Source: Candidatus Babelota bacterium (GTDB lineage: Bacteria > Babelota > Babeliae > Babelales > JAUPTZ01). From it: DNA of 64,000 bases. Of the stretch, positions 311-45,932 are shown one piece after another (the first letter of the stretch is position 1; each line of letters opens with the position of its first letter). The position numbers and the translations under genes were made by a program. Below the pieces are notes generated by a model. It worked only from the letters and a program-made list of their open reading frames with translations. It was not told the DNA's origin and made no database searches. Where the stretch lies: the NCBI GenBank assembly GCA_030917815.1, contig JAUPTZ010000001.1, positions 2,102 through 66,101 on the forward strand, in the 5' to 3' direction.

Positions 311-3300
311 TTAGGCGGCGATGGCCGCTTGAGGGGATTTTGGAGTGTCTGCAGGAGTGTTAGATGAAGGGGCATCATCGCTAAAAATAGCGGTAACATC
401 GGCAACCACTTGTTGATCATCGCTCAGTGGGGCATCGTTTGCGGTTGGGGGTGCCGTTTTTATTGTGCTGCTTGGTGTGGCTACCGTCACAAAATCACCC
501 GGGTTAAGTGATTTTAAGAAATCGGCAGATGATTCTGGTACTGGTCGTTTGGCTTCTGCGGCAGGGGCTGCTGCGGTGGTGCTTGGTACTGCAACACCGG
601 TTGATGCGGTGGTGGCCACCGCTTCTTCAGGAGTAGCTTTCATCAAAGCGGCAATCGTCGGCGGTAGATAGCGTGGATCTGATGGGTCGGTTACCGGAGG
701 TTCTTCTTTTGGCGCCGTTGCTATTTGTATGCCGGCTACTTTTTTATTTGCTTTTGGACTGGTAATGGCTTGTGCATCAATAACTGTAATGTTTTCGTAC
801 AATACATTAGTACTACCGCTGCTTAACGCAAAGTACGCGACAGTGTCTGGTGAGTCCGGCTTTGGATTATTCCAAGAGAAGAGCTCTTTGCTGTGAGGGT
901 CGCCGGTACCAACGCTGATCGTGTTGTTTTGGTAGGTAATCCAGAGTGATTTGGTTATTGGTTTGACCGTTACATCAAATTTTCCTGCAACCGTATCTTT
1001 ATCCATGATGACCGACTTGGTATTTTTCCATCCACCAAGGATAACGGCGTAGCGTGGCATCATGCTTGGTATATTGTTGAGGCCAATGTAGACCTCACCG
1101 TTTGATGCGGTGACGTCACAGGTGAGTGTTTGCCCCATTTTGAGTTTCCAGTGTGGATTCCAGGTAAAAACTCCTTGTTTATTATAAGAGTTGTAGATCG
1201 AATTAACTGGCCATGAAATACCTTTGACTGAGGCCATTTGTTCTACGGTAATCATTTGATCGTTAGCGGCCAGTGCATAGTAGATGATTCCTCTATCGGC
1301 CTCAATCGTATCATCATGCCAGAAGAGGAGGATGTTGGTCCCCGGTTTGTCTCCCAGACCAACGCAGACGCTGCCGTGGTCATAAAGCACCCAATAAAAA
1401 GCCGGAACATATTGATTTTTGATAACTGCATTGGCGCTATCAATTGCGGCAACTACGCTTCCATTTGACTTGATAACCGTACGGCTATTTTTATCGGCAC
1501 CGATAACGACTTCGTAGAGTGGTGTGCCTCCGGTACTATTATGCAGCCCTATGCAGAGGTCATTAGCGCCTCGAGCTTTGAGAACGATGCCTCCAAAATC
1601 GGACTGAAGGAGTCGCCATGTTTGGTCAAACTTATATTTTCCTCGGTTGGCCGGTATAACGTACTGATCTACTTTTTCTTGTTTGGCAACCGGCAGGTTC
1701 TGTATGTTGCTGTAGCGTACGTTGCTGGCATCGCTGCTGAAACTAAAATAGGTCGCCTCACTGCTCATGCTATCTTTCCAGTCAAGGAAGGTTTTTACAC
1801 CCGGTTTGTTGCCGGCGCCAACGCTGATATGATCTTCATTGAAAATTACCCAGTACGTGCTTGCATGACTAGGAACGCTGACAACGCCTCGTGCATCGGT
1901 AATCGATTCAACAATATTCCCTTGTTTTTTTATCTGTGCGCCGGTGTTTTTATTGGCACCAATAATTACTTCAAACAACGGGTTTGCCAGTGTTGCAAGT
2001 TTGTTGTCGAGTCCAAAGTAGTAAGGCCCGTCTCCTTGGACATCAAAGACAATGCTGCCTGCACTGTTAGCGCTCAACTTCCATTTATCTGAGAAGGTGT
2101 AGGTGCCTTTACGCATATTGGCCGAAAAACTGGTATTTCTTTTAAGTACACTGGTTGAAGATCTTTGGCTTTCAATAGTGCGATACGTTGCTTGGCCGGT
2201 ACTGCTGCTTACCGAAAAGCGTTGCATGATATCAACCACATTAATATTTTGGTAATCGGCTAAGAGCGAGTCATTATTTTGGGTTGTTCCTTGACCCACT
2301 GCAATGTACCCTTTATCAAAAACAATCCAGAATGCTTGAAAATCTTCTTTACTTACGAGTGGTTGGCTGCCGAGTTCACTCGTCGCTACGAGGACGCCAT
2401 TTTGTGTGATGGTGCAATTTTTGCCAATTTTAATGACATAGGTCGGTTCTGCTTTAGTGCCGGTAAGGCCGATAACTGCTTCGCTGTCGGTTTTTACTTC
2501 AAAGGTTATGAGGCCTTGTTCCGGCTTTGCCAGGGCCCATGGCGATAACCAATTAAACACTCCTTTTTCTTGGCACGCGCTATACGTCTGGTAAGCCGGC
2601 ATTGCATTGCCGGGGAGTTGGGTGGTGTCTTGGTAGGTTGCATCGCCGTTGGCGCTTGCTAAGGCAAAATGGGTAATCTCTTTGGCCGGCTCTCGGTCAA
2701 GCCATTCCAGGACCGTATTTTTATGAGGATCGCTATTACGCCCCACGGTGAGATGTCCTTTATGGTAGCTAATCCAAAATCCATAAAAATTGTCACCGTC
2801 TGGCAACAATGCATCGCTATCGGTGCTTCGTGCTACGACAGTCTTGTTTTTGCGCACAGTTGCTTCTTTACCGTTTATAAATACTTCGTATACGGCACCG
2901 CTTTTTTGGTTGCCAATGCCTATACACAGAGTGCCTGATGAGCGTGCATTCAAAGTCATGATACCTGCGTCTGGTTTATGAAGTTTCCAGGCCTCTTCCC
3001 AGACGTAAGTAGCGGTTGGTTGCGGGGTATGAGTGGTATAGGCTTCTGCAAGCAATGCATCACCATATTCGGTAACAATGATCGGATCTTTGGGATCAAG
3101 AGCGGCAATTTTTTTGCAATATAAGGAAGCTTGCGTTTGATTGCCTATAGCAAATGAGGTGAATGCCGGTTTCGCCGGCAGTGTTGTCTGCCCAATAATA
3201 TCTTTTTGCGTGACCGGGCCATGGCCATAGGCGAGCGCGCCAGTGGCTTTATTGTAATGTACCCAATAGGGATAAAAATTAAAGGGATCGGTTATGTAGG

Positions 3301-5497
3301 TTGCTTTGTTTTCGGTGGTAACGAGGATAGCTCCTTTGTCGTCGGCTACGGTAGTTTTTGTACCGCCTGCATCGCCAACGACCAGCGTGTAGATCTCTTT
3401 TGCATCGGTCTGTAGGCCAACGCTGAAGCCGAATTGAGTTTTTGCCGCAAAGATGAGAAGCAGGTCATCGGTATTGGGGAGAGTCCAGCTGCTGCGCCAT
3501 GTCAGTGGTGTTTGTGGCCCGGCCGTAAATTGAGTGCCACGGCGTAATGGTTTATCGAGAGGAAGAGCTGCAATCGAATTAAATTCAACATGATCGGTGT
3601 TATTAGTAAAGCAGAAATGGGTGAGTGGTTGTTTATCGGTTGGTGTTTCAAGAATAACATCGTTGCCGGGAGTGGTACCGGTGCCCAACATGCAGTAACC
3701 GTCTTCATCATAGGCAAACCAGTAGGGGGTATAGCTACTTTTAGCGGCGATTATTGCTTCGGTATCGGTAGTTTCAGAAATAACTTTTTTGGTGTGATCA
3801 CTGAGTGTTGTTTTTGTGTTTTTCTCGGCACCAATAGTGCAGAGCAATGTATACGAGTTGTCGGTTGAGGTGCCATTTGTGTGTAAAGCAAGGCACATGT
3901 CACTCGCTCCTTTTCCATGCCACGTTACAATGCCTTTTCCGGCGGTTGGGAGTGCCCATGTTTCATTCCATGTGCATGCAAAATGACGATTAACCGCACT
4001 GGCCATAGTGCCGATTGGGCAGGCGACAGCCGGCTGTATAACGATATCGCGAATTTCTACCGGATTATCCCAGCTACTGAACGAAACATATTGGATAGGG
4101 CATCCACCACCGCCTTCGGTTGGTTTTTTTGCCGGATCGATTGGCGTTGCCGGCGTGTCATGATGCTCGGCGGGAGCTGCAGAATGGGCCGGTGCAGTGG
4201 ATGAAGGTGGCGCTTCGGCCAGTATGTTGACGATAACCGATGGGGCCATTGTTGCCGGGTCTGCATACATTTCACTGATAATATTTTTTGATGGGTTCGT
4301 GCCGCTACCGATTACAAAATGACCGTTGTTGAACGTTGCCCAGTACGGATGATACGTTTTATTGCTGCTGTCTGAAAGGGTTGCATCAGGGTCTTGTGAG
4401 ATGGCAAGATAGTTGTAGGTTTTACCATCGGGCGCGCTCGTAGCCATTGTTGCTTTGCTATTGCCTTCAGCGCCAATGGCTGCGAGATATCGCGCAAAAG
4501 TAGCATGGGGATTATCACTTAAGCCAATGGCAATGTGTTGCGATGCTTTTGCGGTAAAGGTTATGGTACCGTTGTTAAGTGCCGGTAATTTGAGTGGCCA
4601 TGAGAATTGGTTATAGGCATTGTATGAGCTGTATTGTGAACCAAATGCTTGAGTGCTTGGCGGACCGGTATGAATGTTTACAAAAGCGAGTTGATTGTCT
4701 TGTGAAGAGAACGAGAAATATTGAATTTTTTCGGGCAAATTAGGAACATTCCAATCAAACAGAAGTTCTTTGCCCGGTGTTGCGCCACGGCCAACCGAAA
4801 CATATCCCTTGTTAAAACTTGCCCAATAGGTTTGAAAGCCACCGTCTTTTTTTTGTAGTACGAGTCCGTTCGGATCGCCACTGGAGAAGAGTACTACGTT
4901 ATTTTGATCACGGATGACGTTAATCGAATTTTGCTTTGTGCCCAGTAAAATATCAAAATCTTTGTTATGTACCTGTTCTTTTTCATGTACTTCATGATGG
5001 AACGCGATATGTATTTCCCGATCGCCGGCAACATCAAAGATAACGCTGCCACTATCGGCTTCAGGAAGCTTCCATTTTTCGATCCAGCGAAACGTATTTT
5101 TCATGTTATTAACGGTGTACGATACCGGATCTTTTTCATCTACAATGCTGGCCGTTTCATCCGGGGTAAGGAAATCAATCGTCCCCATGCTTTTTATGTC
5201 TTCGGCGGTGAAGGGGAACTTTTGGCGCATTGCGGCTAGGCGTTGTGCGTTCTCGGCCTGGATTTTTTTCAGTGCATCATCACGATCCCGCAATTGTTTT
5301 TTGATGCCGGTTTGTTCTACTACGGTGGTATTTTTTTTGACTTCTAACGCGGTGAGATCGGATAAGAACGCTTTGCGGTGTTCTGCGATTTTTGCAAAGA
5401 TATCATCTTTAGATCCATGTGACAGCGGGTTGAAAATATCTGCGATCATGTTGCCAAAGCTTGCAAGCGTTCTCTCCGGATGAGTAAGGTCAAGCAC
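311..5497 (-). CDS. giant (1728 aa) repeat protein with nine tandem FAMeT-like (Methyltransf_FA-type) beta modules, a helical N-terminus and a P/A/T/S-rich tail
   Basis: 5187-nt ORF. Nine ~150-aa modules each carry IGxxKN(T/S)xxxI, (Y/F)W(V/I)x(F/Y)xxGx(I/V)xVGxG..PG and YF(S/A)(F/L)SS-type motifs. Examples are YEVVIGADKNSRTVIK...FYWVLYDHGSVCVGLGDKPG and AVILGGWKNTKSVIM...SLWITYQNNTISVGTGDP. The listed GTG start has no SD, and the frame stays open upstream to the stop of the preceding gene. Confidence 0.9.
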   Translation of the reverse strand: MLDLTHPERTLASFGNMIADIFNPLSHGSKDDIFAKIAEHRKAFLSDLTALEVKKNTTVVEQTGIKKQLRDRDDALKKIQAENAQRLAAMRQKFPFTAEDIKSMGTIDFLTPDETASIVDEKDPVSYTVNNMKNTFRWIEKWKLPEADSGSVIFDVAGDREIHIAFHHEVHEKEQVHNKDFDILLGTKQNSINVIRDQNNVVLFSSGDPNGLVLQKKDGGFQTYWASFNKGYVSVGRGATPGKELLFDWNVPNLPEKIQYFSFSSQDNQLAFVNIHTGPPSTQAFGSQYSSYNAYNQFSWPLKLPALNNGTITFTAKASQHIAIGLSDNPHATFARYLAAIGAEGNSKATMATSAPDGKTYNYLAISQDPDATLSDSSNKTYHPYWATFNNGHFVIGSGTNPSKNIISEMYADPATMAPSVIVNILAEAPPSSTAPAHSAAPAEHHDTPATPIDPAKKPTEGGGGCPIQYVSFSSWDNPVEIRDIVIQPAVACPIGTMASAVNRHFACTWNETWALPTAGKGIVTWHGKGASDMCLALHTNGTSTDNSYTLLCTIGAEKNTKTTLSDHTKKVISETTDTEAIIAAKSSYTPYWFAYDEDGYCMLGTGTTPGNDVILETPTDKQPLTHFCFTNNTDHVEFNSIAALPLDKPLRRGTQFTAGPQTPLTWRSSWTLPNTDDLLLIFAAKTQFGFSVGLQTDAKEIYTLVVGDAGGTKTTVADDKGAILVTTENKATYITDPFNFYPYWVHYNKATGALAYGHGPVTQKDIIGQTTLPAKPAFTSFAIGNQTQASLYCKKIAALDPKDPIIVTEYGDALLAEAYTTHTPQPTATYVWEEAWKLHKPDAGIMTLNARSSGTLCIGIGNQKSGAVYEVFINGKEATVRKNKTVVARSTDSDALLPDGDNFYGFWISYHKGHLTVGRNSDPHKNTVLEWLDREPAKEITHFALASANGDATYQDTTQLPGNAMPAYQTYSACQEKGVFNWLSPWALAKPEQGLITFEVKTDSEAVIGLTGTKAEPTYVIKIGKNCTITQNGVLVATSELGSQPLVSKEDFQAFWIVFDKGYIAVGQGTTQNNDSLLADYQNINVVDIMQRFSVSSSTGQATYRTIESQRSSTSVLKRNTSFSANMRKGTYTFSDKWKLSANSAGSIVFDVQGDGPYYFGLDNKLATLANPLFEVIIGANKNTGAQIKKQGNIVESITDARGVVSVPSHASTYWVIFNEDHISVGAGNKPGVKTFLDWKDSMSSEATYFSFSSDASNVRYSNIQNLPVAKQEKVDQYVIPANRGKYKFDQTWRLLQSDFGGIVLKARGANDLCIGLHNSTGGTPLYEVVIGADKNSRTVIKSNGSVVAAIDSANAVIKNQYVPAFYWVLYDHGSVCVGLGDKPGTNILLFWHDDTIEADRGIIYYALAANDQMITVEQMASVKGISWPVNSIYNSYNKQGVFTWNPHWKLKMGQTLTCDVTASNGEVYIGLNNIPSMMPRYAVILGGWKNTKSVIMDKDTVAGKFDVTVKPITKSLWITYQNNTISVGTGDPHSKELFSWNNPKPDSPDTVAYFALSSGSTNVLYENITVIDAQAITSPKANKKVAGIQIATAPKEEPPVTDPSDPRYLPPTIAALMKATPEEAVATTASTGVAVPSTTAAAPAAEAKRPVPESSADFLKSLNPGDFVTVATPSSTIKTAPPTANDAPLSDDQQVVADVTAIFSDDAPSSNTPADTPKSPQAAIAA

Positions 5498-5722: not shown

Positions 5723-7414
5723 TTATGAAAGATTTGTTGTATTGAGTGCTAGACTGAATGCTAATACCTCGGCTAACTCTTCGATGGTCAGGGGATTTGC
5801 TGCTACCAAAGCGGCTTCAAGGCCGACGTATGATGCTTTGAGCGCTACTTCTCCGGCTGCATAGGAGAGTGCGTAGGTGACTGTTAATATTTCTGAAAGT
5901 GGTAAAACCAACGCTTTGACCGTTTCAAGCACGCCGATGGCAACACCGCGTGCCGTTTCGACTGCCGCTACGCGTACACTCCAATACGTAAGCTCAGCAA
6001 CCTTCCAAAACTCGTACCATTTCATGCCACGAGCAACGCGCTTAAGGCTCGCGATAGCATGATGTACTTCGGAATTAAGTGAGTTTACTTTGGTAACAGC
6101 GGCCGCAATTTTCTTTCTGCCCTCAAGCATTTTTTTTCGAGCGGCGAGAATTTTTCCCAATTCGTGGCCAAGATTTCTATCGGCTTCTTCTACCGCCTTT
6201 ACCGCCGAGTCAATTCCTTTTTGTGCGCCATTCATTGCGGCAAAATAAGCGGCTTGTGCGTGCTTAAGTTTTGCACTGAGATTGCTAATGTCGTGTTTAA
6301 GTCCATCAACTTTTTTGCGTGCATTCTCAATTCCTTTCTCAGCTTTTTTATACACATTGACTAATGCATCACCAACTTTGGTTACGGCCGCCTTTGCTTC
6401 TTTTTCTATGAACCCAATGAAGTTATTTTCTACGGCTCCTTCTAGAAAAAAATCACCGTCGTTGAGTTTAAATTCGGCAAGAAAGGTGGTGGAAAACATG
6501 CCAAACAAATTGGCGTAAGTCATTAAGTGAATGGTCTCTGAGGCAATAATAAGATCGATTTCTGCCATTGCACCAAAAAGGTCAACCAATCCGCTTAGGG
6601 TCACTTTTTGCACCTTCTTATCAAGCCGTATTTCGGCGAGTACGCCATCGTCGGCAGTTCCATACTTACCATCAGGCCCAACGCCGGTGATTTTTATAAG
6701 ATTGGCAACGTTGATCTCTTTCATATAGGCCTGTAGGAGTAATCCCTCGGTATTCACGGCGAATGTGGCGCGAAGATATGCGCCCCAACCGAGCGACATT
6801 TTTGCGGTCATGCCAAAACCGTTTTTTGAAATATCTACACCGGCCTCTTTGAGTCCGGTTAAATTATAGGCAAACAAATCGGTATCTTTTTTTACAGCAG
6901 TTGTTTTTTCGGTTTCATTTTTTTGTGCAGCGGCAAGAATTGTTTTCTTTTCCGCTTTGGCAGCCTCTACTTTAGCCGCACTTTCCTCGGCAGTTATTGG
7001 CGCCGGCCCTGTGTCCGGTTCAGGTGCCGGTAATGCCACTGCCGGTACGATTGCATTATCCGATTCGCTCGGATCAAATGCAGCTACGTTATCGGTGTGT
7101 GCAGTAGCCATATACGACACCGGCTTTTCATTTGGATCGGTACCATCAACCATCGCCATTTCGGCCTGAGCATCGGATGGTGGATTGGTGCCATCGCTAG
7201 TGTCTGCATTATCGGTGGCGACTTTTTCAGTAGCCGGCTCGGCCGATTTTGGTGCGGCATCGGTGGTCGATGCTGGAGTCACTGGTGCAACGGCCGGGGC
7301 CGGAGTGGTTGTTGGATGCGTGGTAGCGAAGAGGAGAAGGGACAGGCAGGTGAATACTACGATGATTGTGCGAGGAGCACCGTTGTTCGGCGATCCGGTT
7401 GGAGTATGATTCAT
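5723..7414 (-). CDS. secreted or membrane-anchored hypothetical protein (563 aa) with a GK-YGTADDG domain and a long helical C-terminal half
   Basis: ATG at 7414 is preceded by AAGGA; the ORF-track start at 7438 would overlap the upstream gene by 20 nt. It has a hydrophobic anchor IIVVFTCLSLLLFATT and a P/A/T-rich spacer. The segment KITGVGPDGKYGTADDGVLAEIRL...LFGAMAEIDL is paralogous to the C-terminus of the 7419..10637 protein. The C-terminal half is coiled-coil and hydrophobic helical. Confidence 0.8.
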   Translation of the reverse strand: MNHTPTGSPNNGAPRTIIVVFTCLSLLLFATTHPTTTPAPAVAPVTPASTTDAAPKSAEPATEKVATDNADTSDGTNPPSDAQAEMAMVDGTDPNEKPVSYMATAHTDNVAAFDPSESDNAIVPAVALPAPEPDTGPAPITAEESAAKVEAAKAEKKTILAAAQKNETEKTTAVKKDTDLFAYNLTGLKEAGVDISKNGFGMTAKMSLGWGAYLRATFAVNTEGLLLQAYMKEINVANLIKITGVGPDGKYGTADDGVLAEIRLDKKVQKVTLSGLVDLFGAMAEIDLIIASETIHLMTYANLFGMFSTTFLAEFKLNDGDFFLEGAVENNFIGFIEKEAKAAVTKVGDALVNVYKKAEKGIENARKKVDGLKHDISNLSAKLKHAQAAYFAAMNGAQKGIDSAVKAVEEADRNLGHELGKILAARKKMLEGRKKIAAAVTKVNSLNSEVHHAIASLKRVARGMKWYEFWKVAELTYWSVRVAAVETARGVAIGVLETVKALVLPLSEILTVTYALSYAAGEVALKASYVGLEAALVAANPLTIEELAEVLAFSLALNTTNLS

Positions 7415-7418
7415 GGTG

Positions 7419-10400
7419 TTATCCTTGTGCGCGAACATAAAACTCTACGTCGGTAAGACCAAATTTAGGAATAAGGTCGCTTGGTATATGACAAATATCG
7501 GCAATGTCGTGGAGCGTGAGCGCATCGTATTTGCCGGCAAAACTACAGCCGAGCGTATTGATATCGCCAAATAACATTGCTTGTGCCGACTTACCTAATT
7601 TAATGGTACCATTGGCGCGAAAACCAAGGCGCCATCCTTTATGGTACGTTTCGCCAACGATGTGTGCATCAAGAATGCCAAGAAGCTTCATAAGCATCTT
7701 AAAGCGAAGATGGAGGAGGCCGATATCAATTTCTATTTCGGCCGATGAGCCAAAAAGTTCGGCCATTGCAGAAACAAAAATGCGTTGTTCAGTCAGTGAT
7801 AATGCGGCATAAAAAATAGGGCCATCGTCGGCTGTGTTGTATTTTCTATCTTTTCCTTTGCCGGTAATTTTTAGCGGACCAAGATTGAATTTTGGCATCA
7901 TCGCATACAGCTTAAACCCGCCCATGATATCGAGGTTAAATCCTGCTTCAAGTTTGGTATTGATGACATACGGAATTTTAAGTACCAGTTTCCCTGAGGC
8001 GCTTATACCAGGGTCAAAATAGATTTGTCCGATTTGCCCACCGATTGGCGCGAACTTAAATTTTACATCATAGAGTGATATGTCAATTGCCTTGATGATA
8101 TCCAATGGGCCTAGATCAAGACCCATTTTGCGGATTAATGCAGGCAATACGAAGAGGGGCCATTCATTGATTTCAGCGAGGAGTAGAATACTGTTAGGTG
8201 CTATTTTAACCGCGGCACGCGCGATAATATCGCCGAGTTGGATAGCACCGGTGATGCCGGCACCAACCGGTGGAATGAGCGGTGCATAGGGTAGTGACAT
8301 TTCTACGGCAACATCGCTTACGGTAATGCCCGGAATGCTGAACGGGTGCCGCCAGACTCCTTGCATTGTTCCTGCTATGGTAAAGAATCCAGGGCTGAAC
8401 GCTATGCTCGCCGTGAAAATGAGTGGAGGCTTGCTTCGGTCGGTTATAAAGGCCAAAGAAACCATTATGGTAAGACTGCCGTCACCACTGATTTGAACAA
8501 TGATATTGTGAATGCTCACTCTGCTTGAGAGTTTTATATCAAGTGGTATCGCAATTTGGATGGTATACCAAGGCATTGATTTCAAGATTGTTATGCCGCC
8601 GATTAGCTTCTTTGGCAGAATGGGGAATATTTTGCGAACCGATTTAAAAAGGCCTTGCGACATATCAAGAGCGCCAAACATATTAAGGCCGGCCTGCATC
8701 ATCATGCCTGACTCGGCATCAAGATACGCACTTTTTACAAAACCGAAGGTGATTGTTTCAAAAACAAGCGAATCGCCAATACTGCCTTTAAGAGAGGGGA
8801 ATGAATCGGAAAGACGCCACGCTTTTTGGGTTGAGGCCATGATTCCTTTAGCGGCGCCAAGCAATACTTTTGCCTGTGTTGCAATACCAAAGAGAACGGT
8901 TTCGCCGCCGATAAATGTTTTTTTTGCCGAATCAATACCAAGAGCCGATTTATTTAAGATAAAGTCTTTAATTCCCGGTATTTCGTTGAGGCCGGGAATG
9001 CATTCAAGCGGTTTTATTGGTTTGCCGCCATTAATTTCTCCGGAAAATTGAACCATTCTTGTTTTTCCACCGAGCGCAGCGGCAGCGCCAGGTCCGAGCA
9101 TGCTCATATCCGGTTTTATGAGACGCAGGATTGGTACGATTTGAAGGCCAAACAAATTGAAGGTACTTTTTACCGCGACATTAAGGTTACTCTGCTCTTT
9201 GCCACTTGCATCGACCGACATGCCTTTCTGTGAAGAGAGAACAATATCTGGATTCTTAAATTTTATCGGGCCCCAATCAAATGAGTTTCCTAGGCTGCCG
9301 ATAAGCTCAAATTCACCATACGCTTTTCTGCCATGTACCGGTATATTAATAAGACCAACAACCGGCAGATTGCAAGAAATGATGCCGCCGATACCAATTT
9401 CTGCTTCTACTGCGCTGCTCCCAAGGTTCATTTGAATGTTCGGCTTGTCCAATGCAATATCGGTATCAAGTTGTAATGGTGTTGTCCCTTGTGCTTCAAG
9501 CATAATCGTAACACCACTGAAAATGATGGTAACGTCGGAGCTGCTTAAATGTGTTTTTCCGTAGAGTACAATTTGGTCGAGATTTGCCGTGGCAGTGATA
9601 GTGCTACTAGGAACACCACCAGAGGCGGCAAGTTCTTGTACGGCATTCAGCGGGTTAAGAAATGATATTGAAACGCCTGACAATGTTATGGTTTCGGCCT
9701 GTTTATTCCCTTTTGCTTGCGACACAATACTGGTAAGCGGAACATCTTCATCTATGGCGGCCGTTGCACCACTATTATTTGGTGTTTCAACACCAAAAGT
9801 AAGGGTCGTACCTTTCTTTCCTGGCGTGAACATTGACGATTTTGCGGTGAGTGTTGGGCCGGTAGGGGCAAGGCTCAAAGTAAGCGTGGAGATCGAGATT
9901 GGTTTTCCGGGGAGAATGTCGAAAGTGAACGGTTTTGCGCAGGTTAATTTTAAGCGGAGCTCAGGTGCCTTGTCGTCATATTTTATGACCGATACCGTAG
10001 CTTCGGTGTCCTTTATGGTGCAGGTACCAGAGAGCGAGAGGTGACCGGTTTTGTCCACGTATCCGGCGAGATCTTTAAACGAAAGCAGACCAACGCTGAG
10101 GCTTTTTTTGCCGGCTTTATCAATGATATCTTTGCGGGTAAGGCCGGCAGGAGAAACGGTTTTGTCGGCAATCGATTCCGGAGAAGGACCGAAGTTGAAA
10201 ATCCCAATTATTGGTAGGGAAACATCGGCACCGTCTACGGCGGTGTAGATGCCGGGGCCGGGGTCGTTGTCGCTGTCATCGCTCGATGACTGAGCCTCTT
10301 CTGCATCTGCCGTTTCTGGTGCATCATCCTTAGTGGTTCCAGTTTCGTCAGGGGTGGTCGCATCAGGAGAATCTTTACTCTTTTCGGCCGCATCGAGGAG

Positions 10401-20093: not shown

Positions 20094-21809
20094 ATGAAAA
20101 AGCTACAAGTCTATCTAATATGCCTGGCTTCAATGCCAGCACTATTTGTTCATGCGCGGCATGATGCCGTCCTTGCTGGTGGATTGAGCGCGGCCGCTCT
20201 TTCAGGACTTGTTTTGGCGGTCGAGAAAGCCCGAGTTAATCGGTTAGAAGAGGAGGTGGGTCGGCTGCGTGCATCTGGTGCGAGCGAAGAAAGCATTCAA
20301 AGAATTCGTACGCAGATTGCAACGGTTCCTTTATATCACAAGGTAGCCCGTGTGGGCCTTCCGGTTGGTGGTATTCTTGCGGCGGCCGGATTTTTTATGC
20401 CGCAGTCGGTCGAGGGTAATCGAGATGCCGATTCGACTCAAGCTACTAATACGGTAGTGGTGGCGCCGGTTGTCACAAAGCGGCCGCTTGTTCCTACCGG
20501 TGATGGTGTGGCCAAACCTGATTCTAAACCAGATTCTAAGCCGGCAGTTAAGAAGCGCTCCGGTAAAGACGGCGAGCGGGCGATTGATGCTGATATTAGT
20601 GCGATGATTGATGCGGCGAGCGATCGCGGTGTGGCGGTGTCAAAGAAAACGTTTGTGCATGTGCCGGTTGCCGGTGATGGTAATTGTGGTTTCCATACTC
20701 TTGGTTTCTTTGCCAACATGCTTGATAGTGAAAGTTATGAGAAGAAGCTTTTTCGTGCTGAAGCGGGCGATATTGCCCAGATTCGTCGTTCAACCTACGA
20801 AAAAATGAAAGAATTGGTTGAGCAGGAATTAGCGGCACTTGATAAGGCCGGTATTCGTACCGTTCGCGACCTTGAAGATGCTAATAAAAAAGAGGCTTCC
20901 GGCTATCGGTATCCGTGGGTGGTACGCTTGGCAAGTAGATTTAATGATGCCGAGGTCTTTGGCTATGATTCCGGCTTGAGTCGTCAGGACGTATGCGAGC
21001 AACTGCTGCTAGGTGACCCGGACTGTATGAAGCAGGTAGCGGCTCGACTTAACCTCACCAGTCGATATAAGATGTCTGATGATCAAATTGTGGCGTCGAT
21101 GAGGTCTGTCGGGGGCGTTGGGGCCTTTTTTGAAGCGGTGGAGCAAGAGGTTGCTCAACGGCTTACGTCAAAGGTAAAAGTCTATGTTGGCCAGGTCTGT
21201 GCCGATATTGATGAATGTGCCGAGATGTCTGATGATCAAAAATTTATGTATATTAAACAGCATCCCGATCTTGCAGCCGCTCTGCTTAACCGCTTTGCGT
21301 TGCCTCGGTACACCGGTGCTATTAAGCCGGGCAGAACAGGAACTATTACCGAAGAGGATCATTTTGAGGTACACAGCGGTCTTTTGGATGATAAACGAGC
21401 AGTAAGCGCGCAGGCGTGGATCGGTATTTTGGCTCGCCGCCAAGCAAATACGCTTGAGCGTGCCGCATCTGAAGCGGTACCTCTGAGGCCGCTTGCCAAA
21501 AAGATGCTCGGGCACTATCGGCAGATAGTGGGCGAAGGGGAGAATGTTGTGCTTGCAAACAGCGAGCACGCATCGGCCTGGTTGGATAAAATTGAGTTTG
21601 ATGTTAAGGCTGAAGAGATGGAGCGCCCAATACTTATTTGGGAGCGTGATGGGAGTGGCTATAAGGTAGCCTCAATTTCTGGTAAGCAGTATTGGGAAAA
21701 ATGTGGCAAGGAAATGACCGAATGTATGCATGTACTGAATGAGGGGAATGGGCATTGGTCGGTCTTGGTTCCAGAAGCAGGGCTTCCTATGCCAATGATG
21801 GAAGAGTAA
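20094..21809 (+). CDS. membrane-anchored OTU-like cysteine protease (putative deubiquitinase), paralog 1
   Basis: Leader with three hydrophobic segments and a KPDSKPDSKP linker. Cys box HVPVAGDGNCGFHTLGF (OTU-type D-G-N-C) and C-terminal His box LNEGNGHWSVLVP are present. Confidence 0.6.
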   Translation: MKKLQVYLICLASMPALFVHARHDAVLAGGLSAAALSGLVLAVEKARVNRLEEEVGRLRASGASEESIQRIRTQIATVPLYHKVARVGLPVGGILAAAGFFMPQSVEGNRDADSTQATNTVVVAPVVTKRPLVPTGDGVAKPDSKPDSKPAVKKRSGKDGERAIDADISAMIDAASDRGVAVSKKTFVHVPVAGDGNCGFHTLGFFANMLDSESYEKKLFRAEAGDIAQIRRSTYEKMKELVEQELAALDKAGIRTVRDLEDANKKEASGYRYPWVVRLASRFNDAEVFGYDSGLSRQDVCEQLLLGDPDCMKQVAARLNLTSRYKMSDDQIVASMRSVGGVGAFFEAVEQEVAQRLTSKVKVYVGQVCADIDECAEMSDDQKFMYIKQHPDLAAALLNRFALPRYTGAIKPGRTGTITEEDHFEVHSGLLDDKRAVSAQAWIGILARRQANTLERAASEAVPLRPLAKKMLGHYRQIVGEGENVVLANSEHASAWLDKIEFDVKAEEMERPILIWERDGSGYKVASISGKQYWEKCGKEMTECMHVLNEGNGHWSVLVPEAGLPMPMMEE

Positions 21810-21814
21810 TGTTT

Positions 21815-23764
21815 ATGAAAAAATGGTTGGTACCTTGTTTGGTGGCAGTTGGTCTGGCGACAGCCCCCGTTAGTGCGTGGAGTAGTCGCCATGTGGTTGG
21901 CGCAAGTGGCGTGGGTGTGACTACGTTGGCCGGGATGGTCGTCTGGCTGACACAGAAGAAAATTAATCGTCTTGAGACTCGCTTGGCTCGTCTACAGCCA
22001 ACGAAGGCTCCGGTTACGCCGTTGGCAGCGATGTGCATGAAGCAGATTACTACCGAGATTGAGCGGCTTACCCTTATGCGCAATGTGGCCTTGCCTTTCT
22101 TGCCTATTGGGGTTGGCCTCATGGGCGGCGCCGGGCTTTCCTGGTGGCGCAATCGGGGTAAGGAGATCGAAGAATCGCCCGATTACCAACCGATTCATCC
22201 GAAGCCGGACGCATCCGGTAAGCGGTTGGGTTCACGTTTAGCTACGTGGACCGTTCCGCATGATTTACTGGCCGAGGTGTCGGCCGACGTGAATCGTAGT
22301 GCTGCCTATAAAGAGGCCGGGCTTACTGAGCACTGCTATTCGCAAGAAGGGCGATCCGGTACCGGTTTTATCGCGAAAAATGACGATGAGGCCGCGTTTG
22401 TACTGGCCGATATGATAGTTCACCACACGGAAAAGGGTCTGGTGGTGCCGGAGAGCTACTTTAATAATATTGATATGGATGGCAGTACCTTGGATTGTGG
22501 TTTCAACGCTATCAGTTTTTACCGTGGTTTGCGAAAGAATAAGAAATATGGACTTGCGCGCTATCGTGGCAGTGATATCGCAGAAGTGCGCCAAGCGCTT
22601 GCGGCAAAGATGAAAGAACGGGTTGAGGCCGAGTTGGCTCAATTGGAGAAGAGGGGCATTGGATATGTTGGTCTTTTTGAGCAAATCAATGAGCCTTGCT
22701 GGGTGGACGGCAAGGTAATGGCCGGAAGAGTGGGGCCTACTATTCTGGGACTCATTGATCGATTTAGTGATGCTGCGGGTGGAGATGTTCTTTCACGATC
22801 GGTCGTTGGTCTAGAGCTTTTTAAGGAGCATGCGGCGGCGGCGCACGAGGTTGTTGCGAGGCTGGATCTTGCGCGGCGGTATGGCAAAACAGAAGATGAA
22901 TTGGTTGAAATAATACAGAAATATGGATTTAGCAGGATGGTTGAGGCTGGCGAAACAAATCATGGGAAAGCGGTTGTTGCCGGGATCAATGAGTATTTGG
23001 TAGCGGCCTGCAAGGACGTACCGAGCGAGAAAGAAATGTCTGCGGAAGAGCGGTTCATGTATGTTAAGAGCCATCCTGAGTTAGCGGTTGCTATGGTTAA
23101 GCGGTTTGCGTTACCGTTTTATACCGGTGCACAAAAACCGAGTAAGCGCGGGGAGGCAATTACCGAAGAAGATGATGTTAAGGAGCTGCTAGATCGCTTG
23201 CATGAAGATCGCAATAAGAGCGCTGAGGCGTGGATAAAAAACCTTGCTTTTCGTGAGACCAGTGCGATCGATGAGGCGGCTTATAAAAATTGTGTAAAGC
23301 TCCGCCCACTTGTCGAAAAAATGCTTCATTATTACGAAGAAAATGTGGGCAAAGGGAAAACCTCATTTGAGGGGCATAGGCGATCCCGGTTCTTGGAAAG
23401 GACCGAACTTGATAATGAGGCCGAGATTGTGGGACGGCCTATTGTGCAATGGACTCATGTTGATGGGCACTATGTGGTAGCTTCGGTTTCTGGGGGGCGA
23501 TACTTTGAAGCGGTAGGTAAAAAGATGAGCGAGTGTATGCATATGCTCAATGAAGGTAACGGTCACTGGCGTGCATTGGTTCCGGCTAAAAATGATGATT
23601 TAACCGTAGAGAGAGTAGTGCCGGCCGCTTTCGCCGACCTTGCTGATGGTTGGGAAGATTGGATGGGGTACGATTCCTTCGACGATTTTAGCGTTGATAG
23701 CGAGGATCTCGATGAAGAAGAGTCGGAACGGTCTGACACAGAGGCTAAAGGAGCGGCAGCTTAG
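21815..23764 (+). CDS. membrane-anchored OTU-like cysteine protease, paralog 2
   Basis: Starts MKKWLVPCLVAVGLATAPVSA; an ATG at 21809 overlapping the upstream TAA (TAATG) is also possible. Cys box DGSTLDCGFNAISFY and His box LNEGNGHWRALVP are present. It is collinear with 20094..21809 and has an acidic C-terminal tail. Confidence 0.55.
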   Translation: MKKWLVPCLVAVGLATAPVSAWSSRHVVGASGVGVTTLAGMVVWLTQKKINRLETRLARLQPTKAPVTPLAAMCMKQITTEIERLTLMRNVALPFLPIGVGLMGGAGLSWWRNRGKEIEESPDYQPIHPKPDASGKRLGSRLATWTVPHDLLAEVSADVNRSAAYKEAGLTEHCYSQEGRSGTGFIAKNDDEAAFVLADMIVHHTEKGLVVPESYFNNIDMDGSTLDCGFNAISFYRGLRKNKKYGLARYRGSDIAEVRQALAAKMKERVEAELAQLEKRGIGYVGLFEQINEPCWVDGKVMAGRVGPTILGLIDRFSDAAGGDVLSRSVVGLELFKEHAAAAHEVVARLDLARRYGKTEDELVEIIQKYGFSRMVEAGETNHGKAVVAGINEYLVAACKDVPSEKEMSAEERFMYVKSHPELAVAMVKRFALPFYTGAQKPSKRGEAITEEDDVKELLDRLHEDRNKSAEAWIKNLAFRETSAIDEAAYKNCVKLRPLVEKMLHYYEENVGKGKTSFEGHRRSRFLERTELDNEAEIVGRPIVQWTHVDGHYVVASVSGGRYFEAVGKKMSECMHMLNEGNGHWRALVPAKNDDLTVERVVPAAFADLADGWEDWMGYDSFDDFSVDSEDLDEEESERSDTEAKGAAA

Positions 23765-23921
23765 TCATCTTTTATACTAATGGAATCATGTGTTTTGGGG
23801 GAAAGCCGAAACTTTTTCTCCAAATTATTCCAGCTTTGTGATAGTCTCTGCTATTATTGTAAAGTGTATGTTACGTTTTTTGCCTAGTAAATTGTTTTTT
23901 CAGCCTTTGTTTGGGGGATGT

Positions 23922-26150
23922 ATGTTACGAGATAAAATTTTTATAATGCTAGCCGCCGTTTTTGTGAGCGGTTTTGTGGTTAATGAGTGTTCGGCCATGG
24001 ACCGTGACGTGTACGGTGCGCAACAGGCGTATATAGCTGCTTCGCAGCTTGCTAACGCAGAAGTACAGAATCTGCGAGCTTCGGCGGTACAGGCTAGAGC
24101 TGACTTGGATGCAGCGGTTGCAAATGGTCGGGCTCGGCTTGATCAATTGAAACGTGATGCTGAGGCCGCGGCCCAGCGAGCGGCAGCGGACGGTGTTGAT
24201 GCGTTGAAAGGCCAAGTGCAACAACAAATTCGGGCAGAACAACAGAGAGTAACTCAAGCGATTCAGGAGTGTGAGCGGAAAAAGCAGGAGCTCGCAGCTG
24301 ATTATGAAGAAAAGAAGCGAGGTTTGACTCGCGAGGTTGAGCAAAAGCGAAGAGAATTTGAAGAAGCAAACAGGCGGTTTGTGGAGCAGCATAAGCAAAC
24401 AACCGAAGCTGATCGTAGAAAAGCCGAGGAAATGCAACGTGCAAAGATTGCTGCGGACGAAAAGTTGCAGCAAGATCAGCAGGCATTTTTGCGAGCTGAG
24501 GCAGATGCTGGACCTGGCCGTCTTAAAGCACTCGAAAAAACTAAACTTGAGGCAGAGCAAGCAAAGCACTTGCAAAAAGTTCAGTTCGATCGTGATAATG
24601 CTGAGAACACCGCAATGCAAGCGTTGAGAATAGAAGCGCTTAAGGGCTCTGCGCTGCGTAAGGGTACCCCAACCGCCGCAGAGCTAGAAGCGGCACCGTA
24701 TAGTGATGAAGATGGTTATGATTACGACGCAATCATTGCCAAAATCAGAGCCGGAGGCACCGACGAGGATGCTTTGCGAGCTGACAAGATGCTTGAGCGC
24801 CGCCAAATTCAGCAGTCGATGGCCGATTATGAGCTTTTCAAGCGCTCTGCCGAAATTTCAGCCGAAGCAAAAATGTTAGAAGACAAAGAAATACAGGCGT
24901 ACGAAGCGGCATTGTTGCCGAAGCGTATTGCGGCACAAGCGGCAAAAGATATTCAAGAGCAAAAAGTTGCTGAAGTGTCGGCGCGTGAAACGGCGTTGAT
25001 GAACAACAAGTTTAAGCCGCTTGAATATAGAAATAACAAAGAAATGCTTAAGATGAAGATGGAAGGGCTCATGAACCTTGCCAAGATGGTTGGTGATGGG
25101 TTTACGCCTAAGAATGTTGCCCTTGCCGCTGCCGGTATCGGTGGTACTTACGGATTGGTCAAGTTGCTTGGCGTTGGTTCCCGTCAGTTGGAACGTATCC
25201 TGAAGCAACCGGTGTTGGTCCGTCATTCTTCACAAGGTGGTCCATTGACTAAGCTATTCCGTTCTATTTTCCCTAAAAAATCTGATCACGCTACCTACCA
25301 TTTGAGCGATATGATCTTGAACCCAGATCTTGCTAAAAAGCTTGAGCGGATTTCAAACATGATCAAGCTGGCTCAACAACATGGCGCACCATTGCCTGGT
25401 GTGGTGGCTTACGGTCTACCGGGTAACGGTAAGACGATGTTCATGGAAGCATTGGCAAACGATTCTGGTATGAACTTTGCAATGATGACCGGTGGCGACG
25501 TATCTGCCTTGCTTTCAAGCGGTGGTAAGAACGCGGCCGTTACCGAAATTCATAAGTTGTTTGACTGGGCAATTACCGCCGGACCAACATTGTTGTTTAT
25601 CGACGAAGCCGATGCGTTCCTTAAGAAAGGCCGTGATGCTAAGTTGAGTGAAGGCTTGGCCGCTGCGATTAACGCCTTCTTGAACCGTACCGGTGCTTCA
25701 AGCAACAAGGTGATGATTGTGTTGGCTACTAACCATCCACACGTGTTCGACGAAGCGGTGGCAAGTCGTATGTCGATCTGGGTTAACTTCCCAGCTCCTG
25801 GCTTTAACGAACGTGCTAAGATGTATGTTAAGTTCCTTGATGACGTGGTTAATGAAGGTGTGGGCGACGATCATACCCCAGTGGTTATTGTACCGGAAGC
25901 TCGTTCAGAAAACTTCGTTCAAGAAGTGGCAAAACGTACCGATGGCTACTCAGGTCGTGATATGACCCGTAAGATCTTCGACTCGTTGCAACGTGAAATG
26001 CTTGCCGAAGGTAAGTTCCAAGTAGATCGTTCGCTCATTATGCAAACGTTGAATGAGATCGATGCACAAGAAAAAGAATTGAACTCGTTTAACACCGTTG
26101 GAAACAATGGTTCGAGTTTCGTCAATCATGCGGCCGCTATCGCTGCGTAA
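23922..26150 (+). CDS. ATAD3-like protein: N-terminal hydrophobic segment, long coiled coil, central TM, C-terminal AAA+ ATPase
   Basis: ATG 23922 is preceded by GGGGGA. The AAA core GLPGNGKTMFMEALANDSGMNFAMMTGGDV...HKLFDWA...LLFIDEADAFLKKG...NAFLNRTGASSNKVMIVLATN closely matches my recollection of eukaryotic ATAD3 ([76 protein letters not shown]). The TM and juxtamembrane region ALAAAGIGGTYG...ILKQPVLVRHSS parallels ATAD3 ...ILGQPSLIRESS. Confidence 0.8.
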   Translation: MLRDKIFIMLAAVFVSGFVVNECSAMDRDVYGAQQAYIAASQLANAEVQNLRASAVQARADLDAAVANGRARLDQLKRDAEAAAQRAAADGVDALKGQVQQQIRAEQQRVTQAIQECERKKQELAADYEEKKRGLTREVEQKRREFEEANRRFVEQHKQTTEADRRKAEEMQRAKIAADEKLQQDQQAFLRAEADAGPGRLKALEKTKLEAEQAKHLQKVQFDRDNAENTAMQALRIEALKGSALRKGTPTAAELEAAPYSDEDGYDYDAIIAKIRAGGTDEDALRADKMLERRQIQQSMADYELFKRSAEISAEAKMLEDKEIQAYEAALLPKRIAAQAAKDIQEQKVAEVSARETALMNNKFKPLEYRNNKEMLKMKMEGLMNLAKMVGDGFTPKNVALAAAGIGGTYGLVKLLGVGSRQLERILKQPVLVRHSSQGGPLTKLFRSIFPKKSDHATYHLSDMILNPDLAKKLERISNMIKLAQQHGAPLPGVVAYGLPGNGKTMFMEALANDSGMNFAMMTGGDVSALLSSGGKNAAVTEIHKLFDWAITAGPTLLFIDEADAFLKKGRDAKLSEGLAAAINAFLNRTGASSNKVMIVLATNHPHVFDEAVASRMSIWVNFPAPGFNERAKMYVKFLDDVVNEGVGDDHTPVVIVPEARSENFVQEVAKRTDGYSGRDMTRKIFDSLQREMLAEGKFQVDRSLIMQTLNEIDAQEKELNSFNTVGNNGSSFVNHAAAIAA

Positions 26151-34290: not shown

Positions 34291-36135
34291 ATGAAGAAAA
34301 TGTATCGATTACTACTCTTAACGGTCGCGGTGTTTGTAGCGCCGTGCACTTCTTTGCAGCCCAATGTGCGCGTTATAGGTGGTGTTTCAGTTGCAGCGGC
34401 AGCTGCTTTGGTAACGGGGCGGTATATTGTTGCCAATAAAAATCTTGCGGGAGCCAGGGAGCGACTGCATGAGGCTTTGAGGCCACTACCGGTCCTGATA
34501 ACCGATGGGGGAGAGGTTGCCGAGCATGTGGCTGGTATGCAGGCACAACCCGACTATATCATACAGAAGGCGCGGCGTGGGGTTGAGGTAGCGCAGAAAG
34601 AATTTGATCGTGTCGATAAGGTTCTTAAGGGGTTTATTGCGATCTTTGGTGTTGGGGTAATTGTGCTAGCTATTCGTCATATGATGGCTCCGGAATCTGA
34701 GGATGCCTCATTACTCGGTACCGTGACAGGCGGAAAGCCGGCTACAAAGCCAACGAGCGATGATACAAAGCCACTTGTGGTGACGCCACCAGTAATCGAT
34801 GATACAAAGAAACCAGATGAAGAGAAACCAGATGATAAGCCTGGTGCGATAGAGCCACCGGTAGTTGTGGTTACGCCACCAGTAGTTGTGGTTACGCCAC
34901 CAGTAGTTAAACCGTTGACCCCTGCAGAGCAACGTGCTGCCGATATTGCAGCAAGGGAGGCCGCGCTCCAGGCAGAGCATACGAGAAAGATGCAGGAGGC
35001 AGAGCGCAGGCGGCAGGAAGAGTATGCCAAAGACGAGGAAGATCGGAGATTAGCGCGAATTGCCGATGCCAAAGAGGAGCGAGAAGCGAGAGCGGCAGAG
35101 CGTGAAGCGGAGCGGATACGTGCTGAAAAAGAAAAGCCAATGCGGGATTTCATGGCCGCACTTGATGAGGCGCAGAGAGGAAAGCCATCAGATCTTGATC
35201 AGTATAGGAAGCTGGATTACATGAAAGAAATGAATGCACTTGGTGATCGGCGTAATCTTCAAGAAATTGTTCAAAAAATCGGGGCAATGCCAGAGCCGGA
35301 GCGAATGATGCTTAGGCAACGGATATTGGCTGCGAGTGGAAGAGGGCCGTTTCTTTCCCGATTCCGCGCAAAGGATTTGAAGGCCGATGACGTTGAAATT
35401 TTGCGGCAGCTTCTTAATGTGGTTGATGTCGGGCCCAATGCTTGGATGGTTGAGCGCGATAGATCTTTTGAGCCGATTAAAAGATTTGATGATATTGCAG
35501 TCGGCGAGACCCAAGAGGCTTTTGATGCTTCTACTAATGTCGCGCAGGATTTTGCGGCCCAAATAGATCTTGCCGTTTTGCTGAGAAGCAGAAATATTGC
35601 CTTTTCTCTAAAAACACCAAATGGCAGCGTATTGTGCAGCAACGAAGGTATAGAATTTGACGTAGACACCATGCGCTACCGTAGCCGTGATTGGAGTGAT
35701 AGAAGTAATTTCAAACCGGATGGTACTTTTAGGCATAGGGTAATTGAGCGATTGAACCAGTATGAAGCGGCTAAAAGTAAGCTCGGTGCTTGTATTGCTA
35801 GCGGAGATATAGAAGGATTTAAGGCAGAATTAGCGAGACATCCGAAGCTTGATATCGATTGTCCGGTGGCGGAGTATCAGTATCAACCACTGCTTCTTCT
35901 TGCGGTGGGATCCGATAACGATCACCATCGTGAGTTTGTGACCGCTTTGCTTGAGCGTGGGGCCAATCCACGCATTGTTGCGTCTAATAATGGTGCTATT
36001 TTCGCGGCACGCCAGGCGGCAGCGCAGCATTATGATGTACGATTGAGCGACGATAGGCAAAGTGATAAGTACCGTGAGTATCAAGAGGTTCGTGAAGATC
36101 TGCGGGTAGCTGTTCTTGCGCAGCAGCTAGTATAA
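34291..36135 (+). CDS. membrane-anchored protein with a PPVVVVT repeat, an E/R-rich coiled coil and a weak C-terminal ankyrin-like repeat
   Basis: Leader MKKMYRLLLLTVAVFVAPC plus TM segments. Contains EAERRRQEEYAKDEEDRR. The ANK-like stretch is PLLLLAVGSDNDHHREFVTALLERGANPRI. Confidence 0.7.
   Translation: MKKMYRLLLLTVAVFVAPCTSLQPNVRVIGGVSVAAAAALVTGRYIVANKNLAGARERLHEALRPLPVLITDGGEVAEHVAGMQAQPDYIIQKARRGVEVAQKEFDRVDKVLKGFIAIFGVGVIVLAIRHMMAPESEDASLLGTVTGGKPATKPTSDDTKPLVVTPPVIDDTKKPDEEKPDDKPGAIEPPVVVVTPPVVVVTPPVVKPLTPAEQRAADIAAREAALQAEHTRKMQEAERRRQEEYAKDEEDRRLARIADAKEEREARAAEREAERIRAEKEKPMRDFMAALDEAQRGKPSDLDQYRKLDYMKEMNALGDRRNLQEIVQKIGAMPEPERMMLRQRILAASGRGPFLSRFRAKDLKADDVEILRQLLNVVDVGPNAWMVERDRSFEPIKRFDDIAVGETQEAFDASTNVAQDFAAQIDLAVLLRSRNIAFSLKTPNGSVLCSNEGIEFDVDTMRYRSRDWSDRSNFKPDGTFRHRVIERLNQYEAAKSKLGACIASGDIEGFKAELARHPKLDIDCPVAEYQYQPLLLLAVGSDNDHHREFVTALLERGANPRIVASNNGAIFAARQAAAQHYDVRLSDDRQSDKYREYQEVREDLRVAVLAQQLV
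34856..34909 (+). repeat. 21-nt coding tandem repeat (about 2.5 copies)
   Basis: CCACC(G/A)GTAGTTGTGGTTACG repeated, encoding PPVVVVT. Confidence 0.9.
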
Positions 36136-45679: not shown

Positions 45680-45932
45680 AAGGGTCCTTTTCTTTGCACG
45701 AGATTTTGACGATATCTGTAGACAACGTACAGGCGCTGAAACCTCTTTGTACAGAAAATGCTGATATCGACTATCGCTGTCCCACAGCGAAGAATATTCG
45801 GCGATCATTTTTTTTGACCGTTGCATTTCTGCTATGATTGCGATACCATATCCTCTCGTGGCAGTATACGCATTATAACTCGTTGCTTTGTATGTAAATC
45901 GCCTTAAAGGCGGTTATGTAGAAGGTAGGTTT

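Follow-up and report, generated by a model that had tools for sequence, protein, structure and literature searches.

The window, a 64,000-nucleotide (nt) stretch of contig JAUPTZ010000001.1 from Candidatus Babelota bacterium, carries two adjacent plus-strand genes whose products, P1 (copy 1) and P2 (copy 2), are predicted to be membrane-anchored cysteine proteases of a very divergent OTU type. The organism belongs to the Dependentiae (Babeliales), a widespread phylum whose members live as obligate parasites of protists. P1 and P2 are tandem paralogs, as a first-pass annotation of this DNA had proposed, with 33 % identity over 590 amino acids (aa) (E 1e-81), a similarity far above chance. The second open reading frame (ORF) is listed from a TTG at 21755, but the ATG at 21809 is the likelier start, because it overlaps the ORF1 stop codon by one base (TAATG), follows a Shine-Dalgarno-like GGAAGAG and gives an N-terminus (MFMKKW...) that agrees with other members of the family described below. 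The two genes appear to be translationally coupled, and a terminator-like hairpin probably ends their transcription unit; across the region the total of terminator-like sites is not above the shuffled expectation. The features of the pair are as follows.

20094..21809 (+): P1 (ORF1), 571 aa; predicted OTU-like domain with a giant helical lobe, C-terminal to an anchor and a linker
20094..20156 (+): P1 aa 1-21, signal-peptide-like segment MKKLQVYLICLASMPALFVHA, with a basic n-region, a hydrophobic core and V-H-A before an Arg, as read from the sequence
20166..20399 (+): P1 membrane hairpin predicted from hydropathy; transmembrane segment 1 (TM1) at aa 25-43, Arg/Lys/Glu-rich helix at aa 44-86, TM2 at aa 87-102
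20400..20582 (+): P1 aa 103-163, Pro/Lys-rich low-complexity linker, variable in length and sequence across the family
20658..20711 (+): P1 Cys box HVPVAGDGNCGFHTLGFF, with the proposed nucleophile Cys198 (codon 20685-20687)
20721..21572 (+): P1 expanded helical lobe, about aa 210-493, all-helical in the model
21291..21329 (+): P1 aa 400-412, lobe motif RFALPRYTGAIKP, conserved between the paralogs
21573..21773 (+): P1 C-terminal OTU core, with a W-L-D helix, beta strands and the His box CMHVLNEGNGHWSVLVP, which holds the proposed general base His554 (codon 21753-21755)
21809..23764 (+): P2 (ORF2), 651 aa from the ATG at 21809; layout like that of P1, plus an acidic C-terminal tail
22466..22522 (+): P2 divergent Cys box NIDMDGSTLDCGFNAISFY, with Cys230 (codon 22496-22498)
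23534..23584 (+): P2 His box CMHMLNEGNGHWRALVP, with His586 (codon 23564-23566)
23651..23761 (+): P2 aa 615-651, acidic C-terminal tail
23792..23822 (+): terminator-like hairpin and T-run, 28 nt past the P2 stop codon; a pattern match only

The four short motifs that the first-pass annotation had picked out are all present where it placed them: the Cys motifs HVPVAGDGNCGFHTLGF of P1 and DMDGSTLDCGFNAISFY of P2, which contain Cys198 and Cys230 respectively, and the His boxes CMHVLNEGNGHWSVLVP and CMHMLNEGNGHWRALVP. The distance from Cys to His, given there as about 355 aa, is 356 aa in both copies, and the Cys is preceded by Asn in copy 1 and by Asp in copy 2, as had also been noted. The His box of P2 is the stretch best conserved between the copies, with 16 of 20 residues kept.

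Relatives of the pair were reached by synteny, through the loci around close GyrA orthologs, and by exact look-ups. Pfam gave no match for the window proteins even at E up to 10, and pattern scans of genome and metagenome contigs with the family alignments returned no match. A profile of the two paralogs, run with HMMER against 1.84 billion representative proteins, retrieved only the copy itself and one distant relative, P0002 (774 aa, E 5.7e-6, with the match over the His-box region); the exact copy-1 sequence is present in three Logan assemblies. P0002 is encoded on a Joint Genome Institute metagenome contig (L004), on which pgsA, pgpA, gyrA, dprA and maf lie downstream as in the window, and directly upstream of it is a second relative, truncated where the contig ends, whose Cys and His are only 189 aa apart. 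Altogether 12 further members were found in related Dependentiae/Babeliales genomes, which brings the family to 14 with the window pair. The window GyrA is 86 % identical to that of L004 and 82-85 % identical to those of Candidatus Dependentiae and Candidatus Babeliales metagenome-assembled genomes (MAGs), whose isolate names suggest river and lake water samples; identity to the GyrA of more distant TM6 genomes is 61-64 %. These values place the window in the Dependentiae (Babeliales). No member was found within the sequence available for the distant Dependentiae loci L009-L011 and L017, and the family was found only among close relatives of the window genome.

The family locus is constant, lying between yicC and pgsA-pgpA-gyrA, and the number of copies at it varies. 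Four copies stand in tandem in L006 and four in L023 (from the same MAG as L005); the window has two and L004 at least two; the L008 and P0008 genomes have one each, and L007 has at least one, its gene being cut by the contig end. In the tandem fours (L006 3747-8894 and L023 2689-8031) the stop and start codons overlap. The L006 record is labelled 'uncultured Pseudomonadota', probably a taxonomic misassignment, since a Dependentiae MAG has a GyrA with 96.5 % identity to that of L006.

In an alignment of 10 members, at about 16-36 % identity with copy 1, no columns are invariant except Cys198, Phe205, His554 and Trp555; Asp195 is near-invariant, and the Cys box and the H-W pair are kept in all 14 members of the family. 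This conservation argues that the Cys and His boxes are not chance motifs.

Significant similarity to OTU enzymes is reached only at the level of the family profile. The 10-member profile matched the OTU protease of Crimean-Congo hemorrhagic fever virus (CCHFV vOTU) at E 1.4e-4 when compared with the Protein Data Bank (PDB), and OTU domains make up 21 of the 25 listed matches, nairovirus OTUs, EschOTU and VCPIP1 among them. In the alignment the Cys and His columns of the family fall on the vOTU stretches that hold the catalytic Cys and His: the Cys box aligns with PGDGNCFYHSI of CCHFV vOTU, and the C-terminal core of P1 aligns with vOTU residues about 81-157, the catalytic His included. Between them the central OTU helix and strand are aligned, with '(D/A)WLD...AKEM..PILVW' in the family and 'EWGSTLEASMLAKEMGITIIIW' in vOTU. 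A short relative (L004:1-1098) used alone had nairovirus vOTU as its eight best PDB matches (E about 0.02), with its His box aligned to the vOTU segment LLHSGQTHFDAL that holds the catalytic His; a 4-member profile gave a top ten consisting entirely of nairovirus OTUs, at non-significant values. The best family member reached E 0.021 against the Pfam OTU model PF02338, below the gathering threshold. The D-G-x-C Cys loop of OTUs is present in P1 (GDGNC) and altered in P2 (DGSTLDC), and the His followed by an aromatic residue, downstream of the Cys, is found as H-W in 14 of 14 members. P1 also has an Asp, Asp195, at Cys-3; the acidic residue of the active site is an Asp upstream of the Cys in A20-type (PMC7396840) and Lot-type OTUs (PMC7690952).

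The predicted structure points the same way. An AlphaFold2 (AF2) model of copy 1 residues 165-571, built from an 8-sequence alignment, had a mean predicted local distance difference test score (pLDDT) of 69.8 and a predicted template modelling score of 0.68. The pLDDT is 80-95 in the N-terminal half of the modelled domain, around the Cys, in the early part of the lobe and in the core blocks, and the strands at domain residues 349-396 have 71-89; values are generally low at about residues 200-290 and fall below 50 at 204-212 and 238-268. In the model Cys198 opens a helix (34-45, domain numbering) that follows a strand, His554 stands just before the last strand (391-396), and a region of about 270 residues between the two is all-helical. 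A central beta sheet with supporting helices, as in the OTU fold, is predicted. The comparison with OTU structures that the first-pass annotation had suggested was made with Foldseek, and OTU deubiquitinases are 49 of the 50 best PDB matches, with a rice OTUB-like protein at 8e-3. Nairovirus OTUs were matched at probabilities up to 1.0 over 66-108 aligned columns at 2-6 Å; the best 50 further include otubains, wMelOTU, A20, Cezanne and DUBA, and a viral structure library was topped by giant-virus and nairovirus OTUs.

It might be objected that the resemblance of the boxes is due to chance, the proteins being rapidly evolving membrane proteins without protease activity. The window proteins lack direct database matches, and the first AF2 model, made from a 2-sequence alignment, was poor and uninformative (pLDDT 51.7). 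This explanation has nevertheless been largely refuted already and is given next to no weight: the same residues are invariant across the family, the profile reaches E 1.4e-4 to OTU structures with both motifs correctly ordered, the fold matches agree among themselves, and the ratio of nonsynonymous to synonymous substitution rates (dN/dS) is below 1. The earlier proposal of OTU-like cysteine proteases is supported by the family profile and the fold matches, and P1 and P2 are read as very divergent OTU-type cysteine proteases whose activity is predicted. The family is a small, previously unannotated, divergent OTU family; those of its members that are named in the databases searched are all called 'hypothetical protein'. 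It also serves as a caution for annotation, being missed by Pfam and NCBIfam and seen only through a profile made from syntenic relatives.

The long spacing of the window pair is one end of a series. Across the 14 members the distance from Cys to His ranges from 120 to 358 aa: it is 120-128 aa in four members, 164-189 aa in five, 288-293 aa in two, and 356-358 aa in the window pair and P0002. The added residues lie between the catalytic helix and the conserved W-x-x helix, so that Cys198 to Trp496 measures 298 aa compared with 59 aa in vOTU, and the resulting helical lobe of the window proteins is about 270-300 aa. Reported lobe lengths are 50-60 aa in typical OTUs, 110-120 aa in otubains and 178-210 aa in the Lot enzymes of Legionella, in which the lobe binds ubiquitin (PMC7690952). 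The lobe described here is the longest helical lobe of an OTU that was found described. No internal repeats were found in the insert, and parts of it (RFND/RFSD and the adjoining helices) are common to the forms with a spacing of about 290 aa. The motif RFALP(R/F)YTGA(I/Q)KP (nt 21291-21329 and 23102-23140) is the second-best conserved stretch between the copies, with 14 of 20 residues kept; it adjoins a segment with AF2 pLDDT below 50 and may represent a binding site or else a linear motif.

The first-pass annotation had suggested that the pair might be a more extreme variant of the Lot class, and that suggestion holds for the length and the position of the lobe and fails for membership in the class. 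Shared ancestry of the lobe with the Lot enzymes is very improbable. Lot enzymes likewise have a helical insert that separates the Cys helix from the core beta sheet (PMC7690952); against descent from them, no Lot structure is among the best 50 Foldseek PDB matches or the 25 listed profile matches, in which nairovirus OTUs and otubains are nearest, the spacing of 120-358 aa within the family indicates that lobe size varies inside the lineage, and the N-terminal Sec/TM anchor is unlike the layout of Dot/Icm effectors. Lot-class membership was rejected on the absence of specific similarity to Lot proteins among the matches listed and on the canonical spacing of the short members.

The catalytic standing of P2 was judged separately. 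Its Cys loop is rearranged and longer, reading DGSTLDC in place of DGxC. P2 has lost the near-invariant Asp at Cys-3 and has Asp residues at Cys-1 and Cys-6; Asn replaces His at Cys+3, and Arg occupies His+2. Cys230, His586 and Trp587 are all kept in an intact ORF of 651 codons, and decay of the gene was rejected on these grounds. The doubt about copy 2 raised in the first-pass annotation is therefore reinforced as to catalysis and set aside as to a decaying copy. P2 is predicted to have altered specificity or reduced activity, or else to be a non-catalytic partner. In the last case it would be a dead pseudo-enzyme whose OTU scaffold is retained for binding, for instance as a partner of P1 that binds ubiquitin or has a regulatory role; this is possible, although the balance of the evidence tilts the other way. 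Such a role would suit the altered residues around the Cys and the His, the apparent translational coupling to P1, and the fact that the His box and lobe motifs, and not the Cys-box region, are among the stretches best conserved between the copies. It is less easily reconciled with the retention of Cys, His and Trp over an intact reading frame; His+2 varies in other members too (S, V, A, N, E), and in A20- and Lot-type OTUs the acidic residue precedes the Cys (PMC7396840, PMC7690952), as the Asp residues of P2 at Cys-1 and Cys-6 do.

The family diverges far faster than its surroundings. Between L006 and the L005/L023 MAG, GyrA is 96.5 % identical with a dN/dS of 0.04, and YicC and YebC have dN/dS of 0.05 and 0.01; the family orthologs are 66, 63, 44 and 37 % identical, with dN/dS of 0.41, 0.28, 0.47 and 0.24. 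Between L007 and L008 GyrA identity is 93.5 % and that of the family orthologs 27 %. The nonsynonymous rate of the family is at least 10 times that of the neighbouring genes. As dN/dS of its orthologs is 0.24-0.47, the family is under purifying selection overall, and its fast divergence together with copy-number variation at a fixed locus is as expected of host-interaction genes.

All full-length members have the signal-like layout of P1. In the pair the N-terminus consists of MKK and a hydrophobic core followed by V-H-A or V-S-A, the first hydrophobic segment is Gly/Ala-rich, and a charged helix of 40-45 aa separates it from the second; in P2 hydropathy places the two segments at aa 29-47 and 93-113. 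The hairpin module is kept across the family, with an R-W-G-G motif in most members. Membrane anchoring, claimed in the first-pass annotation, agrees with the two predicted hydrophobic segments behind a signal-like N-terminus in each protein. A similar N-terminus was seen in an orphan protein of 614 aa encoded elsewhere in the window (34291-36135, +), which has MKK and a hydrophobic stretch, a Gly/Ala-rich transmembrane segment, a charged helix, a second transmembrane segment and a Pro-rich linker (TPPVVVVTPPVVVV). Towards the C-terminus the protein is unrelated to the OTU family, and it scores E 0.0017 against the family hidden Markov model (HMM) and E 0.052 against an HMM of the N-terminal module. 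From these resemblances, the anchor module may be common to different exported proteins.

Taken together, the evidence makes it fairly probable that P1 and P2 are exported, membrane-tethered OTU-fold cysteine isopeptidases of this obligate intracellular bacterium; we infer both the export and the host ubiquitin substrate. As a first step, the protein would enter the membrane by means of its Sec-type signal and two-helix hairpin. Because the loop joining the helices is rich in Arg and Lys, the positive-inside rule predicts that the linker and the catalytic domain lie on the far side of the cytoplasmic membrane, that is, on the outer side of the inner membrane. The domain would then be exposed or released to the host, by type II secretion, in outer-membrane vesicles or through insertion into the vacuole membrane. 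There Cys198, at the N-terminus of its helix, and His554, on a beta strand and followed by Trp555, would cleave ubiquitin or ubiquitin-like conjugates, and the lobe of about 300 aa, inserted at the site by which the distal ubiquitin is bound in OTUs and Lot enzymes, would recognise the substrate. The pair would in this way probably strip ubiquitin from host proteins. Export by such a route is consistent with what is reported of the phylum: TM6 genomes carry type II secretion components (PMC4776705), signal peptides occur on 44 % of the coding sequences of Chromulinavorax destructans, and Dependentiae depend on Sec export (PMC6561590).

A host-directed role is also favoured because the window holds ankyrin, leucine-rich-repeat (LRR) and cPLA2-like proteins and because Dependentiae are intracellular and Sec-rich. 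The eukaryote-like proteins encoded in the window include one with a cPLA2/lysophospholipase-type PLA2_B domain (43790-45826, -) and one with ankyrin repeats (32534-34174, +); another protein (47654-50104, +) has LRRs weakly similar to those of type III effectors. A search of the literature on Dependentiae for a deubiquitinase or OTU found nothing specific, and to our knowledge no Dependentiae effector has been characterised experimentally.

The same proteases could instead act on the bacterial side, anchored in the inner membrane with a periplasmic domain that processes envelope or exported proteins or peptidoglycan-linked peptides. The Sec-like signal and the two transmembrane segments with their positive loop do predict a periplasm-facing domain, no type III or type IV secretion system has been reported for the phylum in PMC4776705 and PMC6561590, and the canonical acidic triad residue is absent from P1 and P2. 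A role in the envelope is nonetheless unlikely: all of the sequence and fold matches are ubiquitin- or ISG15-directed OTUs and none is an NlpC/P60 or other envelope papain-like hydrolase, the extreme divergence and the varying number of copies fit host-interaction genes better, and the organism is an obligate intracellular parasite with a Sec-dependent secretome (PMC6561590).

Several observations weigh against exported, host-directed OTU isopeptidases. The Sec signal and the two transmembrane segments would put the domain in the periplasm at first, and no E1, E2 or ubiquitin-related gene lies nearby to hint at a substrate. Neither window protein alone had a match in Pfam, in NCBIfam, among PDB sequences searched with phmmer or in a word-indexed search of 5.8 billion proteins. 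In the typical OTU threading, C...H-aromatic-D/N/E (PMC7396840), an acidic or amide residue stands at His+2; the window pair has Ser556 (P1) and Arg588 (P2) there, and E or N is found at this position in only seven of the 14 family members. The Foldseek E-values are individually weak (best 8e-3) and the TM-scores low, because the insert dominates the model.

The gene directly downstream of the pair (23922-26150, +; ORF listed from a GTG at 23790) encodes a protein of about 742 aa. Its N-terminus is signal-like, about 380 aa form a coiled coil, a single transmembrane segment is present, and the AAA domain at the C-terminus has its nearest counterparts in p97/VCP/Cdc48 (PDB E 4e-27). A functional link between this ATPase and the pair was considered and rejected: the AAA gene is not at this position in any of the related genomes examined, and the terminator-like site lies between. 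Its nearness to the OTU genes may be coincidence. Elsewhere in the window a protein of 1728 aa (311-5497, -) contains seven PF12248 domains (Pfam Methyltransf_FA, farnesoic acid O-methyltransferase; E 5e-74), which is unusual for a bacterium. Five proteins of 502-1072 aa (5723-7438, -; 7419-10637, -; 45888-47396, +; 50751-52556, +; 57388-59400, +) have no Pfam match at E up to 0.001, the second of them (7419-10637) no NCBIfam match either, and these may be further lineage-specific proteins. GyrA of the window ends in a long acidic low-complexity tail (30250-30429) like that of P2, and such a tail is also found on GyrA in the related genomes. The window as a whole has a strong and uniformly positive GC skew and mostly plus-strand genes, which fits a single replichore arm.

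If the favoured reading is true, an exported OTU family offers a testable handle on the manipulation of host ubiquitin signalling by Dependentiae. It also extends the range of helical-lobe expansion among OTUs beyond the Legionella Lot enzymes, and the spacings of 120, 165-190, about 290 and about 357 aa form a natural series within one family for studies of lobe growth and recognition. A wider account can be offered as speculation, and we hold it with low confidence: a distinct OTU lineage, invisible to Pfam, would have been invented or radically remodelled in one Dependentiae clade, with a reusable Sec and hairpin (R-W-G-G) module that reaches the host-facing membrane without a type III or type IV system. 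The lobe would then act as a new and rapidly diversifying domain for substrate recognition, the array of one to four copies as an arms-race repertoire of specificities directed at protist hosts, and P2 possibly as a pseudo-deubiquitinase partner.

Among known systems, the nairovirus OTUs (CCHFV vOTU, PDB 3PHW/3PRM/3PSE; MEROPS family C87) and minimal OTUs are the best sequence and fold matches. The family shares with vOTU the D-G-x-C Cys loop followed by an aromatic residue, the W-x-x...E..A..m..I.vW helix and strand, the H-aromatic strand and the C...H order, and the Cys-to-His spacing of the short family members (120-128 aa) is close to the 111 aa of vOTU. The window proteins differ from it in having about 240 extra lobe residues, Ser or Arg instead of Asp at His+2, a bacterial origin, a signal-like sequence and two transmembrane segments, and in going undetected by the Pfam OTU model. 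The Legionella enzymes LotA, LotB/Ceg23 and LotC/Lem27 (PMC7690952) are, like the window pair, OTUs of an intracellular bacterium, the host of Legionella being amoebae. Their acidic residue lies upstream of the Cys (LotB D27 and LotC D17, as assigned by the authors of PMC7690952), and P1 has Asp195 at Cys-3. The window lobe, at about 270-300 aa compared with 178-210 aa, is larger; no Lot protein is among the matches listed, and the targeting signal is Sec-type and N-terminal, not Dot/Icm, with the genes in a tandem array of variable copy number.

The C65 peptidases of MEROPS are the otubain family. In Chromulinavorax destructans, which belongs to the same phylum, C65 peptidases are listed among the secreted and membrane-bound proteinases (PMC6561590); they are known from this annotation summary only and are set beside the present family by description. 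They were detected by standard libraries, which do not detect the window family. Cdu1 and Cdu2 (ChlaDUB1/2) of Chlamydia trachomatis are CE-clan (Ulp1-like) enzymes and not OTUs, with a single transmembrane segment and type III secretion; their genes are adjacent, and both proteins have an N-terminal membrane anchor. As homologous deubiquitinases of an obligate intracellular bacterium they are the closest functional analogy to the window pair, and Cdu1 resides in the inclusion membrane with its catalytic domain toward the host cytosol (PMC5370187, PMC11527256).

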